Source: an uncultured Acidimicrobiia bacterium (lineage in GTDB: Bacteria > Actinomycetota > Acidimicrobiia > Acidimicrobiales > AC-14). From it: DNA of 64,000 nt. Each line of letters opens with the position of its first letter. Position 1 is the first letter of the stretch. Made by a program: the position numbers and the translations under genes. The stretch spans positions 198,688-262,687 of the forward strand of contig CAVYKB010000019.1 of assembly GCA_963768975.1 (NCBI GenBank), in the 5' to 3' direction. The notes under the pieces are model-generated. The model ran no database searches. It worked only from the letters and a program-made list of their open reading frames with translations, and was not told the DNA's origin. This document shows positions 1 through 45,324 of this stretch, piece by piece.

Positions 1-1992
1 ATCGGTGTGGGCCGGCTGCCGGTCACCCTGGTCACCAACGCCTCCTCCGACGTCCTGGTCGGCGGGACCGTCTTCGACACGGCCACCATCTCCGGCGGCT
101 TCAACCCCACGGGCAGCATTCGCTTCGACCTGTACGGCCCCAACAACGCCACCTGCACGGGCGCTCCGGTGTTCACCTCGACGGTGCCGGTGAACGGCAA
201 CGGCAATTACACCTCCGGGTCCTTCACCCCCAGCCAGCCCGGCATCTACCGCTTCGTCGCCACCTACAGCGGCGATACCAACAACGCCGGCGTCACAACC
301 GCCTGTGACGACCCGCTCGAGCAGGTCGAGGTCAGCACCGTCCCGATCATCCGGGTGGACAAGACAGCCAACCCCACCTCCGTCGTGGCCCCGGGCGCCA
401 ACGTGGTCTTCGACGTGGTGGTGACCAACACCACGAACGTGGCTCTCACCATCCGCAGCCTGGTCGACAACGTCTACGGTGACCTCACCCAGCGGGCCGG
501 CTCCACCTGCGCCAGCGCCATCGGCACGGTGCTCCAGCCCGCACCCGGGCCGGGCAACACCTACAGCTGCCGCTTCACCGCCGCGGTGCAGGGCGCGGCG
601 GGCACGAGCCACACCAACATCGTCACCGTCACCGCCACCGACAGCACCGGCCGCACCGTCACCGACGACGACGACGCGGTGGTCACCATCACCGCGGTGC
701 CGCCCACGATCACCAGCACCAAGACGGCGACGCCGGTGAGCCGGCCGGAGCCGGGCGGCACGTTCACCTTCACCTTCTCGGTGACGAACACCGGGCCCAA
801 CCCGGTCACGATCACGTCGCTGGTCGACAACATCTACGGCGACCTCAACGGCCGGGGCACCTGCGCCGTCGGCGCCGTCCTGGCCACCAACGCCACCTAC
901 ACCTGCAGCTTCACCGGGAACTTCACCGGCAACGCCGGCGCCTCCCAGACCGACGTCATCACCGTGACGGCCCGTGACAACCTCGGCCAGACGGTGACGT
1001 CGCAGTCCCAGGCCACGGTGACCATCACCGACGTGCCCCCCACCATCACGGTCACCAAAACGCCAAACCCGATCAGCCGGCCGGCGCCGGGCGGCACCTT
1101 CCGGTTCACCGTGGTCGTCACCAACACCAGCGCCGAACCCGTGACCATCACCAGGCTGGTCGACGACATCTACGGAGACTTCAACGGCCGGGGCAGCTGT
1201 GCGGTCGGCATCGTCCTCGCCCCTGGCGCCAGCTACAGCTGCGCCTTCGACGGCGAGTTCCGGGGCCAGGCCGGCGCATCGCAGACCGACACGGTGACGG
1301 TCACCGCCGTCGACAACGACAACACGCCGGTGACGGCGACCGCCAAGGCGACGGTGACCCTGACCCCGGTCGGCATTCCGCCGGTGGTCACGCCGCCGCC
1401 TCCCGTGCCCCAGCCCCCGATCGTGATCCAGACGCCGCCGCAGATCCTGGTGCGCACCGGCTCCGAGCTCAGCGACCCCGCTCGCCTCGCCGGCATCCTG
1501 CTGATCCTCGGGATCACCCTCGTGGCGGCAACCCGTAACTTCGGCGGCGGCCCCAGCCTGGCCCTCCTGCCTGTCGGCCCCGGCCGCGGTCCTCGTGGGC
1601 CCTGGTCCGGCGGTGGCGGACCTGGCGGCGGCGGTCATCGCTTCGACGGCGGCCTCGGCGTGCGGCTTCCGCGAGGCCCAGCCGGGGGCTCGAGTGGCGG
1701 CGCAGCCCGGCCGCTCCTGCCGCCGCCGGCGCCGGCGCCCGACCTCGACTGGGACGGCTGGGTGACCGGCCGCCGGCCCCTGGCCCCGCCGCCGCCGGCG
1801 CCTGAACCGGCGGCCGTCGTGGAGCCCGAGCCGGTGGCGGCCGAGGTCGCCCCCGAGGTCGTGGAGGCCACCGTCGTCACCTTCGGGGGGCGCGGCGGTC
1901 TCGACGCCGCCGCCCTCGACGCCGCCGCCGCCCTCACGCCGGCCCCCCGGCCGAGCGGGCCACCGGCGTCGCGGCGGTCCCGCCGGCACTGA
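1..1992 (+). CDS. cell-surface protein, 5'-partial, with three or more DUF11-like Ig-fold repeats, then motif LVRTG, a hydrophobic TM segment and a long Pro/Gly-rich C-terminal tail
   Basis: ORF 7..1992 is in frame from nt 1, with no upstream stop inside the window. The repeats follow the pattern VTKT.NP....PG..V.F.V.VTNTG.....I.SLVD..YGDL. The C-terminus reads QILVRTGSELSDPARLAGILLILGITLVAATRNF. Confidence 0.7.
   Translation: MGVGRLPVTLVTNASSDVLVGGTVFDTATISGGFNPTGSIRFDLYGPNNATCTGAPVFTSTVPVNGNGNYTSGSFTPSQPGIYRFVATYSGDTNNAGVTTACDDPLEQVEVSTVPIIRVDKTANPTSVVAPGANVVFDVVVTNTTNVALTIRSLVDNVYGDLTQRAGSTCASAIGTVLQPAPGPGNTYSCRFTAAVQGAAGTSHTNIVTVTATDSTGRTVTDDDDAVVTITAVPPTITSTKTATPVSRPEPGGTFTFTFSVTNTGPNPVTITSLVDNIYGDLNGRGTCAVGAVLATNATYTCSFTGNFTGNAGASQTDVITVTARDNLGQTVTSQSQATVTITDVPPTITVTKTPNPISRPAPGGTFRFTVVVTNTSAEPVTITRLVDDIYGDFNGRGSCAVGIVLAPGASYSCAFDGEFRGQAGASQTDTVTVTAVDNDNTPVTATAKATVTLTPVGIPPVVTPPPPVPQPPIVIQTPPQILVRTGSELSDPARLAGILLILGITLVAATRNFGGGPSLALLPVGPGRGPRGPWSGGGGPGGGGHRFDGGLGVRLPRGPAGGSSGGAARPLLPPPAPAPDLDWDGWVTGRRPLAPPPPAPEPAAVVEPEPVAAEVAPEVVEATVVTFGGRGGLDAAALDAAAALTPAPRPSGPPASRRSRRH
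340..1370 (+). repeat. three DNA-level tandem repeats of about 330 bp, roughly 80% identical, encoding the DUF11-like domains
   Basis: Compare 721-870 with 1050-1200. The conserved stretch is ...agccggccgg(a/c)gccgggcggcac(g/c)ttc... gtcaccaacacc... ctggtcgac(a/g)acatctacgg. Confidence 0.6.
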
Positions 1993-2120
1993 GCAGCGAC
2001 GAGTCGCCCGACGCCGGCCTCGGCCGGCGCTTCGGGATCGCGGGTGAGCGCACCGACGTCCGGCCCCTCGGACGCGGCCACATCCACCACACGTTCCTCG
2101 CCACCTACGGCGGGGTCCGG

Positions 2121-3023
2121 GTGGTCCACCAGCGGCTGAACGCCTCGGTCTTTCCCGACATCGACACCCTCATGGCCAACGTCGTCCGGGTCACCACCCA
2201 CCTGGGGGCTCGGGCGCCGGGGCCCCGCCACGCCGTGCGCCTCCGCCCGGCCACCGACGGCCGGCCCTACGTCCTCGACGCCAGCGGCGCGCGCTGGCGT
2301 ACGCTCGACTTCATCGAGGGAGCCCGGACCGTCGCCCGCTTCGACGGTCCCGCCCGGGCCACCGAGGCCGCCACCACCGCCGCCCGGCTGGTCGCCGACC
2401 TGGCCGACCTCGCCCCGCTGTTACCCGAGGTCATCCCCCGCTTCCACGACGTCGTGGGCCGTCTCGACGCCCTGGCCGGGGCGGCGGAGGCCGACGCCGC
2501 AGGCCGGGCCGGTGAGTGCCGGGCCGAGGTCGACGCCGTGCTGGCCCGGGCCGGCGTGGCCGCCGAGGTGGCGGCGGCCCGGGCCGACGGCCGCCTCCCC
2601 GAGCGCACCGTCCACAACGACGCCAAGGCCGAGAACCTGCTCTTCGACGAGGTGACCGGCGCCGGCCTGTGCCTGGTCGACCTGGACACCGTCGGCCCCG
2701 GCACCGTCCTGTTCGACGCCGGCGACCTGGTCCGCTCGGGCGCCGCCCGCCTCCCGGAGGACGGGGCTGTGGCCGGCGCCGGCCCCGTCGTCGACCACGA
2801 CGTGGTGGCGGCCATCCTCGACGGCTACGCCCGGGCCGGCGCCGGCTTCCTCACCGCCACGGAGGTCGAGTTGCTGCCCCTCGCCGGCCCCCTGATGGCC
2901 CTGGAGGCCGCGGCCCGCTTCCTCACCGACCACCTCCAGGGCGACGTCTACTTCAAGATCGACGGGCCCGGCCACAACCTGCGCCGGGCCCGCAACCAGC
3001 TGCGCCTGTACGACGCGCTGTGA
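2121..3023 (+). CDS. aminoglycoside-phosphotransferase-fold kinase (APH/choline-kinase-like, possibly a sugar 1-kinase); the true start is probably upstream, near 1989-2030
   Basis: Brenner-type motif VHNDAKAENLLFD followed by DLDT (DxD). The in-frame upstream peptide ...RPLGRGHIHHTFLATYGGVRVV looks like the kinase Gly-rich loop, but it has no ATG/GTG/TTG start. The stop TGA is at 3021-3023. Confidence 0.6.
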   Translation: MVHQRLNASVFPDIDTLMANVVRVTTHLGARAPGPRHAVRLRPATDGRPYVLDASGARWRTLDFIEGARTVARFDGPARATEAATTAARLVADLADLAPLLPEVIPRFHDVVGRLDALAGAAEADAAGRAGECRAEVDAVLARAGVAAEVAAARADGRLPERTVHNDAKAENLLFDEVTGAGLCLVDLDTVGPGTVLFDAGDLVRSGAARLPEDGAVAGAGPVVDHDVVAAILDGYARAGAGFLTATEVELLPLAGPLMALEAAARFLTDHLQGDVYFKIDGPGHNLRRARNQLRLYDAL

Positions 3024-4813
3024 GAGTCGACGCCGGCCGCTGCGCCCGCATCTACGAGCTGGTCGACGGCCGCCCCCGCACCGTGGCCGTGGAGGTCGAC
3101 GGCCGGCGCATCGCCCTCGACGGCCCCGAGCTCACCCTCACCGTCGGCCGCCGGCGCCGGCCCGACACCGAGCTCGAGCCGTCCGGCATCGAGCATGCCG
3201 GTAACCGCCTGTCGTGGGCCCTCACCGGCGCAGACCTGGCCGTGCGCGTGGTGGTGGAGGCCGACCCCGCCGTCGGCGTGGTCCGCAAGTGGGCCGAGGT
3301 GAGCGGCCGGGGCCGGCTGGAGCACGTCGAGCTCGACCGCTGGGCCGACCTCGCGGTCGACGGCCCGACGACGACCGGCGAGCCGGTGCCCTACAACGCC
3401 GGCCCCGTTGGGCTCGGTCAGCCCCTGTTCGGCGACGGGTTCTTTGCCGGCGTCGAGCACCCCATGGCCGAGAACCTCGCCGCCCCTGCGACCTGCGGCC
3501 TCCCCGTCGCCGTCGACCTCGGCCCCGAGCCGTACCGCACGCCCGCCACCGTGCTCGGCGCCGGCGGGCTCGACGACTTCTGGGACTACCTCGACACCCG
3601 CCGCCCCGCCCCGCCCCGCCTCGTCACCCTGACCAACAACTGGTACCACCTGGGCGCGCCCCTCACCATGGACGAAGCGTCCGTGCGGGCCGAGCTCGGC
3701 GGCTTCGCCGGCGTCTCGCAGCGCCACGGCCTGGAGCTCGACTTCGTCGCGCTCGACGACGGCTGGGAGGGCGACTGGGACGCCAGCACCGGCCTGTGGG
3801 GGCGGATGGCGCCGTCCCGCTTCCCGGGGGGCCTGGCTGCGCTGCAACGCAACCCCGACGACCGCATCGGGCTGTGGCTGAGCGCCTTCGGCGGCTACGG
3901 CGCTCGCCGCGACGCCCGCCTGGCCTGGGCGGCCAAGCACGGCTACGAGATCGACCGCCAGGCCAACGTGCTGTGCGCGGCCGGCGCCCGCTACCGGGCC
4001 CACCTGGTCGACGTCCTGACCCGCTTCACCGAGGCCGGCGTGCGCTACTGGAAGCTCGATGGCCTGTCGTTCACCTGCGCCGAGACCGACCACGGCCACG
4101 TCACCGGCGCCGGCGCCCGCACCGCCCTGGCCGACCTGTTCGTCGACCTGGTCCGCACCATCCGCGCTGTGCGCCCTGACGCAGTGGTGGCCTTTACCAT
4201 CGGCTCCCATCCCTCCCCGTGGTGGCTCTCGGCGGTGGACTTCATATGGCGGGGTGGCCTCGACGACACCGCCGCCGGCCAGCCGGGCTCCCGCCTCGAC
4301 CGCTTCGACACCTACATCGACACCTGCCTGCAGGCCTACCGCCCGGCCGCCTTCCCCGTCTCCGCCCTGGCCACCTTCAGCATCGTGGAGTCCGAAGCTG
4401 CGTCCTACCGGGGCGCCGACGCCGGCCCCGACGGCTGGGCCCGGCACTGCTGGCTGGCCGCCGGCCGCGGCACTCTGCACCAGGACCTGTACGTGGCGCC
4501 CGACTCCCTCAGCGAGCCCGAGTGGGCGGCACTGGCCGAAGCCCTGGCCTGGCAACGGAGTAACCAGCACGTGCTGGCCCGCAGCCGCATGGTGCTCGGC
4601 GACCCGTCGGCCGGCGAGCTCTACGGCTTCGTCGCCCGCCGGGGCGGCGAGGCCATCGCCTGCCTCCGCAACCCATCGGACCGCCCCCAGTCGATCGCCC
4701 GGGCGTGGCCCGACCTCCTGGGGTTCAGGCCGGGCAGCCTCACCCTCCGCCACGGCCGGTTGGCCGACATCCTCGACCCCTTGGCAGTGCTGGTCGTCGA
4801 AGCCCGCCGCTAG
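3020..4813 (+). CDS. glycoside hydrolase, GH36-like (alpha-galactosidase / raffinose-family clan GH-D)
   Basis: Motifs FVALDDGWEGDWDASTGLW, IGLWLSAFGG and VRYWKLDGLS, which resembles the KxD nucleophile motif. GTG at 3020 overlaps the kinase stop (GTGA). The 168-aa Arg/Pro-rich N-terminal extension of ORF 2516..4813 was rejected. Confidence 0.55.
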   Translation: MRVDAGRCARIYELVDGRPRTVAVEVDGRRIALDGPELTLTVGRRRRPDTELEPSGIEHAGNRLSWALTGADLAVRVVVEADPAVGVVRKWAEVSGRGRLEHVELDRWADLAVDGPTTTGEPVPYNAGPVGLGQPLFGDGFFAGVEHPMAENLAAPATCGLPVAVDLGPEPYRTPATVLGAGGLDDFWDYLDTRRPAPPRLVTLTNNWYHLGAPLTMDEASVRAELGGFAGVSQRHGLELDFVALDDGWEGDWDASTGLWGRMAPSRFPGGLAALQRNPDDRIGLWLSAFGGYGARRDARLAWAAKHGYEIDRQANVLCAAGARYRAHLVDVLTRFTEAGVRYWKLDGLSFTCAETDHGHVTGAGARTALADLFVDLVRTIRAVRPDAVVAFTIGSHPSPWWLSAVDFIWRGGLDDTAAGQPGSRLDRFDTYIDTCLQAYRPAAFPVSALATFSIVESEAASYRGADAGPDGWARHCWLAAGRGTLHQDLYVAPDSLSEPEWAALAEALAWQRSNQHVLARSRMVLGDPSAGELYGFVARRGGEAIACLRNPSDRPQSIARAWPDLLGFRPGSLTLRHGRLADILDPLAVLVVEARR

Positions 4814-9257: not shown

Positions 9258-10889
<1,632 letters not shown>

Positions 10890-43783: not shown

Positions 43784-44428
43784 GTGGACGTCGTCTTCGA
43801 CAACCTCGACGTCTTCCTGGAAGGCATGCGCCGGACCGCGGAGCTGAGCGTGCTGTCCTTCGTCTTCGCCTTCCTGGTGGGCATCCTCCTGGCCGCATTC
43901 CGGGTCAGCCCCGTGCCGCCGCTGCGCTGGGCCGCGGCCACCTTCGTCGAGCTGGTCCGTAACACCCCGCTGCTGGTGCTCATGTTCATCGTGGTGTTCG
44001 CCTTCCCCAGCATCGGCTTCACTTGGTCGTACTTCCTGTCAGCCGTCGTCGTGCTCTCGGCCTACACGGCCACCTTCGTGGGCGAGACGGTCCGATCGGG
44101 CATCAACTCGGTTTCCAAGGGCCAGGTCGAGGCGGCCCGGGCCCTCGGCCTGACGTTTCCCCAGGTGCTGCGCATGGTGGTCATGCCGCAGGCGCTGCGC
44201 ACCGTCGTGGGCCCCCTGGGTGGCATCTTCATCGCTCTCCTGAAGAACTCCGGCGTGGCCGTCGCCATCAACGTGCCCGAGTTGACCAGCGCGGCCAACC
44301 AGGTGGGCACGGACACGGCCCAGTTCATCCCCGCCTTCCTCGGCGCGGCCACCGCCTACCTCGTGCTGACCATCCCGTCGGGCTTCGCCACGACGTGGCT
44401 CGAGCGCCGGCTGGCGATTAAGCGATGA
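43784..44428 (+). CDS. amino-acid ABC transporter permease (HisM/GlnP-like)
   Basis: EAA-type loop AARALGLTFPQVLRMVVMPQALR, 5 TM segments. Confidence 0.85.
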   Translation: MDVVFDNLDVFLEGMRRTAELSVLSFVFAFLVGILLAAFRVSPVPPLRWAAATFVELVRNTPLLVLMFIVVFAFPSIGFTWSYFLSAVVVLSAYTATFVGETVRSGINSVSKGQVEAARALGLTFPQVLRMVVMPQALRTVVGPLGGIFIALLKNSGVAVAINVPELTSAANQVGTDTAQFIPAFLGAATAYLVLTIPSGFATTWLERRLAIKR

Positions 44429-45324
44429 CCGCGCCGTTCCTCGGAGACGCGCTCGGGCCGAAGGGCCGGCGCCAGACCCGCATCCTCACCGTTATCAGCG
44501 CGGCCGTGATCCTGGGTTTCCTCTTTGTGGCCTTCTCCCGGCTGGCCGAGAAGGGCCAGCTCGACGAGGCCAAGTGGGAGCCGTTCACCCAGTGGCCCGT
44601 CCAGAAGTTCTTGCTCGAGGGGTTGCGGACCACGGTGGAGGTGTCGCTGGTCTCCATGGTCGGGGCCATGGTGCTGGGCACGTTCCTGGCCCTGGCCCGC
44701 CTGGCCCGCACCGGGGCCATCCGCTGGACCACGACGCTGTTCGTGGAGTTCTTCCGGGGCCTGCCGCTCGTGCTGCTGATCTTCTTCTGCGCCCTGGGGC
44801 TGCCCGCCTACGGCGTCGACCTGTCGGTCTTCTGGTATGTCGCCATCGGCTTGATCGTCTACAACGGCTGTGTCCTCGGTGAGATCTTCCGGGCCGGGAT
44901 CCTGTCGCTCGACCGGGGCCAGACCGAGGCGGCCTACGCCCTGGGCATGGGCTACTGGCAGGCCATGTTCCTGGTGATCATCCCCCAGGCGGCGCGGCGC
45001 ATGATCCCCGCCATCGTCAGCCAGCTGGTCACCCTGCTCAAGGACTCCTCGCTGGGTGCCGCGGTGGCGTTCGAGGAGGCGCTGCGCCGGGCCCGGATCA
45101 ACGGCGAGTTCTTCCAGAACCCCCTGCAGTCGCTCTTCGTGGTCGCCGTGCTCTACATCGTCGTGAATTTCGCCCTGAGCATGCTGGCCCGCCGCCTCGA
45201 GGTCCGCCAGCGCCGGCGGTACAACTCCGGCGCCATCGTCGTCGCCGGCGCCGGGATGGAGGTGGCCCTCATCGGCGCCGTCGGGGAGGCGGCCGAGGGG
45301 AGGGACTCGACTACCGGAGCTTGA
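44425..45324 (+). CDS. amino-acid ABC transporter permease (second subunit)
   Basis: EAA loop AAYALGMGYWQAMFLVIIPQAARRMIPA. ATGA overlap with the upstream permease. Confidence 0.85.
   Translation: MTAPFLGDALGPKGRRQTRILTVISAAVILGFLFVAFSRLAEKGQLDEAKWEPFTQWPVQKFLLEGLRTTVEVSLVSMVGAMVLGTFLALARLARTGAIRWTTTLFVEFFRGLPLVLLIFFCALGLPAYGVDLSVFWYVAIGLIVYNGCVLGEIFRAGILSLDRGQTEAAYALGMGYWQAMFLVIIPQAARRMIPAIVSQLVTLLKDSSLGAAVAFEEALRRARINGEFFQNPLQSLFVVAVLYIVVNFALSMLARRLEVRQRRRYNSGAIVVAGAGMEVALIGAVGEAAEGRDSTTGA

Follow-up and report, generated by a model that had tools for sequence, protein, structure and literature searches.

LxRTG motifs in two surface proteins of an uncultured Acidimicrobiia bacterium

The DNA analysed here, called the window below, is a stretch of 64,000 nucleotides (71% GC) from an uncultured Acidimicrobiia bacterium of the order Acidimicrobiales (contig CAVYKB010000019.1, positions 198,688 to 262,687). 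Two of its genes encode surface proteins with an L-x-R-T-G pentapeptide, a candidate cell-wall sorting signal, close to the C terminus. The first, open reading frame 1 (ORF1), contains Ig-like repeats, DUF7507/DUF11 repeats, a stalk, the putative sorting signal and a tail, arranged as follows.

1..1992, plus strand: ORF1, the 3' part of a giant secreted surface-protein gene, open at the left edge of the window
343..1356 (boundaries approximate), plus strand: three DUF7507/DUF11 (CLIPPER-type) repeat domains, best matched at ORF residues 113-220 and 238-338 (counted from base 7)
1366..1446, plus strand: proline-rich stalk PVGIPPVVTPPPPVPQPPIVIQTPPQI, found in all orthologs
1447..1461, plus strand: LVRTG pentapeptide, invariant in 8/8 sequences of the C-terminal module that cover the site
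1462..1485, plus strand: spacer SELSDPAR of 8 residues (family consensus x-D-x-x-G-P-A-R)
1486..1533, plus strand: transmembrane helix LAGILLILGITLVAAT of 16 uncharged residues, followed by R-N-F
1534..1989, plus strand: Gly/Pro/Ala/Arg-rich tail of 152 residues (149 after RNF)
1990-1992, plus strand: TGA stop codon of ORF1

ORF1 is a DUF11/DUF7507 (CLIPPER-type) surface protein: it matches PF24346 (E value of 2.3e-14, 53.7 bits with a cut-off of 27) and PF01345 (1.3e-7, 32.4 bits with a cut-off of 24.6), lies near the cut-off of 24 for TIGR01451 (23.2 bits) and gives a weak match to Big_3_5 under the Pfam cut-off (0.00029). Its own N terminus is beyond the window edge, and secretion was judged from its orthologs, which range from about 1300 to more than 2000 aa and begin with Sec-type N-terminal signal peptides (ORF 4454... 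of locus L002, and proteins P0088 and P0092). Because the orthologs are this long and carry signal peptides, ORF1 was taken to represent the C-terminal third of a secreted adhesin-like protein of giant size. The proline-rich stalk presumably spans the cell wall, and a sortase would presumably cut LVRTG between T and G. AlphaFold2 places a helix at module residues 14-36, with a mean predicted local distance difference test score of up to 93, and the residues flanking the helix agree with the positive-inside rule.

A first-pass annotation had described this arrangement, and its coordinates and reading frame were correct. The spacer that it gave as 10 residues is SELSDPAR, of 8 residues, and its 19-residue helix is reached only if RNF is counted, the helix itself having 16 residues. 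Its Pro/Gly/Ala-rich tail of about 150 aa is borne out at 152 residues and is real coding sequence, as judged from conservation and codon-position mismatches. The same annotation had pointed to LSRTG in an equivalent context in a second surface protein; the motif is indeed there, 8 residues ahead of a helix.

9258..10889, minus strand: protein 2, the second secreted surface protein, 543 aa
9387-9401, minus strand: LSRTG
9363-9386, minus strand: spacer RNLATPAG of 8 residues
9312-9362, minus strand: helix LAFVLMVAGFVLVGLGW of 17 uncharged residues
9261-9311, minus strand: basic tail NRPPVRRSPWPNRRRWL

Protein 2 begins with the signal peptide RRWALAVAALLGLGALGVVSAGAQA, followed by AP, and continues with an Ig-like region, a Ser/Thr-rich linker of ~200 residues, LSRTG, the spacer, the helix and a basic end. 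Its tripartite signal (9261..9401, minus strand) is classical in form, including the short basic tail. L001 has orthologs, and L002 and L005 have paralogs or orthologs; the family motif, LSRTG in the window, becomes LTRTG in L002 and is unchanged in L001 and L005.

The linker of protein 2 (window ~9700-10240) is a low-complexity Ser/Thr sequence (STTSTTSTS...), and the L002 paralog has a linker too. It may be a mucin-like, possibly glycosylated stalk. The opposite strand of this segment holds long, spurious D/E/V-rich ORFs.

Conservation of the motif

The composition of the window predicts ~0.6 occurrences of L.RTG per 12,000 coding residues. The only two surface proteins both carry the motif 8 residues ahead of a C-terminal helix. 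Chance is excluded since the two proteins place the motif identically against an expectation of ~0.6, and since it is also conserved in orthologs, and the earlier claim that a fortuitous match was unlikely stands. An internal LARTG at residue 94 of a 300-residue ORF (window 44422-45324, plus strand) has no helix after it and is far from the C terminus; it is a background occurrence, consistent with the rate of ~0.6 per 12,000.

Motif statistics were drawn from 107 collected relatives, in 56 of which a motif and an uncharged helix stand at the equivalent position. LVRTG is the most frequent pentapeptide (27 of the 56), followed by LPRTG and LARTG (5 each), LPETG (3) and LAATG (2), with LSRTG, LVKTG, LPKTG, LPTTG and others as single cases. 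Arg occupies P2 in 41/56, and P3 holds V (28), A (12), P (12), T (3) or S (1). Spacers of 8 residues are the commonest (27/56). Homologs with LPETG, LAATG, LARTG or LPRTG at the ORF1 motif position go on to classical short basic tails, and at least four complete LVRTG proteins (P0031, P0045, P0046 and P0048) likewise end in a classical helix and a RRRR-type tail. From these sequences, the lineage consensus would read L-[V/A/S/T/P]-R-T-G, separated by 8 residues from a membrane helix that basic residues follow.

When 281 kb of Acidimicrobiales-type DNA was scanned uniformly, nine genuine C-terminal signals were returned, all of them (9/9) L-x-R-T-G and belonging to two protein families. A tenth match, inside an MFS transporter, was rejected as a false positive. 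When ORF1 is compared with L001, the LVRTG and helix segment is the most constrained, with mismatches of 0.15/0.09/0.53 at the first, second and third codon positions, which indicates strong purifying selection. No LxRTG model was seen among the curated NCBIfam signals, and a literature search on LVRTG, LARTG, LSRTG and LxRTG found nothing relevant as a signal.

Class E sortases of Acidimicrobiales

Sortase genes were collected from 80 metagenomic loci (667 kb), where the neighbouring signals are LAxTG or LPxTG only. Two of the loci, L055 and L076, match the window in tetranucleotide composition (r=0.99), as closely as known orthologous loci do. A search with the L055 and L076 sortases gave 120 proteins listed, all with PF04203; those named by their source are called class E sortase, sortase or sortase A, and many are from Acidimicrobiales. 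A profile search of the Streptomyces/Thermobifida type returned only Streptomyces enzymes and is uninformative for Acidimicrobiales, and the literature search found no paper on a sortase in Acidimicrobiia.

In this set, AGHR, with the catalytic His, is present in 119/120, TC.P, with the Cys, in 119/120, and the GHY tyrosine in 114/120. The Acidimicrobiales motifs read AGHR and LTLTTC[N/H]P. By these features, the Acidimicrobiales enzymes are assigned to class E. The GHY tyrosine corresponds to Y229 of SrtE1 (VGHY motif in the beta3/beta4 loop, its position read from mutagenic primers; PMC5148588). Class E sortases recognise LAXTG, and the S3-subsite tyrosine has been proposed to form a hydrogen bond with the backbone amide of a non-proline P3 residue (PMC5148588); V, S, T and A at P3 suit such a bond equally well.

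A hydrophobic C-terminal extension of ~60 residues, with two predicted helices and ending in ...F(F/V)FF(Q/E)N..RLLP.N, was found in 119/120 of the sortase homologs. It brings to mind the SafA-like domain that class E sortases of Bifidobacterium carry as a fusion (PMC9282373). Genes encoding class E sortases with this extension lie at L055 9644-10645, at L076 9434-10639 and in L088-L092, and in the 7/7 loci examined the sortase gene adjoins a ccm operon (ccmABCDEFH) and is divergent from it, which is a housekeeping context. The LVRTG locus L086 shares its metagenome sample with two of the Acidimicrobiales sortases, a co-occurrence in one sample and not proof of one genome.

A long conserved tail on ORF1

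The segment after the ORF1 helix consists largely of G (20%), P (19%), A (15%) and R (10%), with the following motifs.

1636-1689, plus strand: FDGG..PRGP
1741-1764, plus strand: DLDWDGWV
1858-1935, plus strand: VVTF..GGLDAAALDAA
1969-1989, plus strand: terminal SRRSRRH

In the alignment of the family (A1), a conserved A(T/S)x(K/R)FG follows the helix, and GPGL, (W)FG..(W)FGG, PPRGP.GG and WDxWV are likewise conserved; GxLDAAALDAA is nearly invariant and stands close to an RRxRR cluster at the end. The L001, L002 and L005 orthologs share the tail motifs and the TGA stop codon, as do P0008, P0009, P0018, P0020, P0043, P0068, P0083, P0088, P0089 and others. Across the ORF1 family the conserved tail is about 150-240 residues long, the lengths in the frameshifted records P0010 and P0006 being unreliable; distant relatives also have long, low-complexity tails, of different sequence. 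Frameshifts split the giant adhesin gene into several called genes in the assemblies of L001 and L002 (ENA ERZ25039504), L086 and L087, and the C terminus of P0014 is a wrong-frame translation of the LVRTG region, another frameshift artefact.

Mismatches between the ORF1 tail and L001 are 0.21/0.16/0.36 by codon position, and those in the DUF11 domains are 0.08/0.06/0.15. The tail ratio resembles that of the DUF11 domains, and therefore points to purifying selection in the ORF1 frame and not in that of the downstream kinase gene; the alternative that the tail is an other-frame N-terminal extension of the kinase gene was rejected on this mismatch pattern.

Of 1.84 billion cluster representatives, a profile of the module matched 27, with E<=1e-10 for 17 of these. 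The matches long enough to show domains belong to the same giant-adhesin family, and many others are short, module-only fragments. One match, the 609-aa repeat protein P0101, was discarded as spurious, being due only to 'SLVAATRR'-like repeats. When reference genome contigs were searched with the tail profile, L005 was among the matches listed, and the taxonomic spread is under-sampled. No relatives of the tail were found in Pfam or among PDB sequences.

In the AlphaFold2 model of the module, the membrane helix is confidently predicted and the tail, for which no fold was obtained, is disordered apart from two short helices, at DWDGWV and LDAAALDAA. The tail is predicted to be cytoplasmic and disordered, and it is probably functional because it is conserved. 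We know of no described counterpart.

Gene neighbourhood and the downstream kinase gene

The surroundings of ORF1 are conserved at four loci: L001 and L002 (ENA sample ERZ25039504), L086 (ENA sample ERZ25039530) and L005 (a reference metagenome-assembled genome titled Acidimicrobiales bacterium). The shared order is cytochrome oxidase genes, the giant surface protein, an APH-family kinase, MFS, MarR, Pterin_4a, Flavin_Reduct, Exo_endo_phos and further genes, the kinase being present in the window, L001, L002 and L005 and not in L086.

The kinase gene directly after ORF1 matches PF01636 (APH family; window 1989-2130 region) and is joined to ORF1 by a short overlap.

1989..1992, plus strand: CTGA, in which the TGA of ORF1 overlaps a CTG in the frame of the APH-family kinase; also at L001 11916, L002 11461 and L005 3146

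The CTG stands exactly 13 codons ahead of a (R/L)FGI motif in the window, L001, L002 and L005. In the window, no ATG, GTG or TTG occurs in the kinase frame from the upstream in-frame stop (1803) to the Gly-loop GRGHIHHTF, and L005 likewise has none ahead of the Gly-loop. This pattern suggests termination-reinitiation coupling of the kinase gene, with CTG as the putative start codon.

A conserved protein of ~597 aa is encoded after the kinase (window 3020-4813, plus strand; L002 12510-14303) and has no Pfam match. We take its 'DDGW' and 'YWKLDG' stretches to recall GH27/GH36-type glycosidases.

Discussion

We propose that LVRTG and LSRTG are probably class E sortase-type cell-wall sorting signals in a form particular to the Acidimicrobiales lineage, processed by a class E sortase whose gene lies elsewhere in the genome. 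The proposal is built on the anatomy of the two C termini, their conservation, the positional equivalence of the motif to LPxTG and LAxTG in homologs, the secretion signals and the presence of class E sortases in the order. LxRTG is, in these terms, a lineage-specific dialect of a known signal, relaxed as to the non-proline residue at P3 and strongly favouring Arg at P2, and it lies outside the curated models.

The first-pass annotation had read the ORF1 C terminus as a sortase-type sorting signal with a non-canonical motif. The comparison with the LPETG, LAATG, LARTG and LPRTG of homologs, the complete LVRTG proteins with classical ends, the LSRTG/LTRTG family and the class E sortases of the order support the first part of this description well, and the long tail is left outside it. 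The second part holds in that P3 is V or S, and not A or P, but the motif is less exotic than it had seemed, since LVxTG and LSxTG are already on record for other Actinobacteria (PMC12095359, PMC7350218).

In the mechanism that we envisage, the proteins would be exported by the Sec route and then retained in the membrane by the C-terminal helix, with the N terminus outside and the C terminus inside. A housekeeping sortase of class E, with its gene at another place in the genome, would cleave the Thr-Gly bond and transfer the cleaved protein to lipid II, and from there to peptidoglycan; both the presence of this sortase in the genome and the cleavage itself we infer. Cleavage of ORF1 would leave a membrane remnant of ~177 residues, made up of the Gly with the spacer, helix and tail. 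The tail would be a conserved, disordered cytoplasmic extension ending in a basic cluster, and it may aid retention or positioning before cleavage or may act as a remnant afterwards.

The nearest characterised system is the class E LAXTG signal of Streptomyces coelicolor (SrtE1/SrtE2, with chaplins ChpA-C as substrates; PMC5148588). Both are actinobacterial, with Leu at P4, a non-proline P3 and T-G as the scissile pair, and in both a short spacer leads to a membrane helix and basic residues; the enzyme class is present in the order with its S3 tyrosine kept. Unlike the S. coelicolor signal, that of the window lineage has mostly Val at P3, but also Ser, Thr, Ala or Pro, and almost invariably Arg at P2; ORF1 adds the conserved tail of 150-240 residues, and cleavage at LxRTG is predicted only. 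Val and Ser at P3 have precedents in the 'non-canonical LVNTG' described for Cna of Gardnerella vaginalis (PMC12095359) and in Trueperella pyogenes, where ten LSXTG surface proteins and a sortase E were detected (PMC7350218). These are also actinobacterial surface proteins with the order motif, helix, cytoplasmic end, and their processing by sortase is likewise assumed, but they belong to another class of Actinobacteria, show no preference for Arg at P2 and have no long conserved tail.

The tripartite architecture and the presumed mechanism are those of classical LPXTG signals (Staphylococcus aureus SrtA substrates; TIGR01167, PF00746), which protein 2 fits fully except at P3. The differences are that P3 is not proline, that the curated hidden Markov models miss both window signals and that the ORF1 tail exceeds the usual 5-10 basic residues in length by a factor of ~15 to 30. 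As a clade-specific dialect of the sortase signal, LxRTG resembles the variants for which NCBIfam has models (NF058582 Microco_LAVTG, NF041528 strep_LAETG, NF033846 Rumino_NPXTG and NF058670 LPxTATN), none of which matches the window signals.

Several observations weigh against the proposal. The end of ORF1 does not have the short basic tail of a classical signal: a basic residue does follow the helix (ATRNF..GRGPRGP), but it is followed by 152 more residues. This conserved extension of 150-240 residues in the family lies outside the classical signal, would be unexpected if the C-terminal fragment were simply discarded and is without explanation from the sortase model. TIGR01167, PF00746, NF041528 strep_LAETG and NF058582 Microco_LAVTG gave no match to either window signal (E<=10) or in the whole proteins; among the relatives, only the LVKTG protein P0021 matched Microco_LAVTG, at 21.8 bits and under the cut-off. 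To our knowledge, cleavage data for V, S or T at P3 exist for no class E enzyme. The authors of the Trueperella study call cleavage at LSXTG unproven (PMC7350218). No sortase was found in the 64 kb window by a scan for TLxTC or by tblastn with four sortase domains, nor in L001-L005, nor in L086 and L087, the last two judged by precomputed Pfam lists only; the related loci checked were eight, seven of them with an LxRTG protein, with ~10 kb per side and less at contig ends. Conversely, no LxRTG substrate lies beside the 7 Acidimicrobiales-type sortase genes (with short flanks in three) or in 78 other metagenomic loci. This missing linkage is uninformative either way, because it is what would be expected for a housekeeping sortase.

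Some of these points are also met by a reading in which ORF1 is a type I membrane protein that is never cleaved. Its helix would be a permanent anchor, its tail a cytoplasmic domain that docks with or signals to partners, and LVRTG a juxtamembrane element inherited from a sorted ancestor or otherwise used. The tail is conserved under purifying selection, holds short linear motifs and two predicted helices and is always joined to the same adhesin family, all of which would suit such a domain, as would the absence of a sortase nearby and of matches to the curated LPXTG models. However, the same pentapeptide and spacing occur in relatives and in a second family with short basic tails, where a role as a cytoplasmic domain is impossible, LVRTG is more constrained than its flanks, and a function of the tail before cleavage is compatible with sortase processing. 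We consider the uncleaved protein unlikely.

We give a comparably low chance to a more specific proposal, in which sorting and tail function are combined: the tail, with its FG/WFGG, PPRGP, WDxWV, GxLDAAALDAA and terminal RRxRR elements, may be a functional module, so that cleavage at LVRT/G would free the adhesin to the wall and the membrane-tethered cytoplasmic remnant, or the uncleaved tail, would recruit or signal to an intracellular partner. The remnant or tail could report export of the adhesin, position the anchoring site or act with the APH-family kinase to which it is joined through the conserved CTGA overlap. The nearest precedent for a post-cleavage membrane fragment with a function, as far as the summary in PMC11326707 goes, is in Streptococcus gordonii, where a membrane-retained C-terminal remnant of a substrate is sensed by a two-component system. 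The S. gordonii remnants, as they appear in that summary, are short, a helix and a few basic residues, whereas that of ORF1 would carry ~150 conserved disordered residues, and no sensor for it was identified.

It is quite improbable, in our view, that LxRTG is processed by some other enzyme, such as a class F sortase or an undescribed peptidase or transpeptidase of the lineage. A P3 dominated by V with a near-constant R at P2 is preferred by no characterised sortase class, the unusual two-helix C-terminal extension of the Acidimicrobiales class E sortases may make them behave differently, and no genetic linkage of sortase and substrate was seen. But no candidate enzyme lies near the seven LxRTG-protein loci, linkage to substrates would not be expected of housekeeping class E sortases, the S3 tyrosine of class E is retained, and the hallmark of a sortase signal is a hydrophobic P4 with a T-G core behind it. 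That the motif is coincidental and the tail a non-coding run-on of the ORF in a 71% GC genome with rare stop codons is scarcely credible: third-position GC does fall to 0.79 in 1546-1750 against 0.94-0.96 elsewhere, the tail is of low complexity and the tails of distant relatives differ in sequence and length, but the tail motifs and the stop codon are conserved in the orthologs and relatives given above, mismatches to L001 are in excess at third codon positions of the ORF1 frame and the motif is conserved in dozens of homologs.

If LxRTG is a working class E signal in Acidimicrobiales, the LPXTG and LAXTG models miss the wall-anchored surface proteome of abundant and largely uncultured soil and water Actinobacteria, and a dedicated LxRTG model would recover that of the order. 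Class E sortases would then be known to accept V, S and T at P3 and strongly to favour Arg at P2, a wider specificity than has been described, which bears on how their S3 and S2 subsites work and on orthogonal tools for sortase ligation. The finding extends the existing framework and overturns none of it. Most worthy of follow-up are the conserved tail and the CTGA overlap that joins it to the kinase gene: the tail would be a fragment left over by a sortase and possibly endowed with a cytoplasmic function, and, should it prove to be a functional module, ORF1 would be a sortase substrate with a built-in cytoplasmic effector domain.

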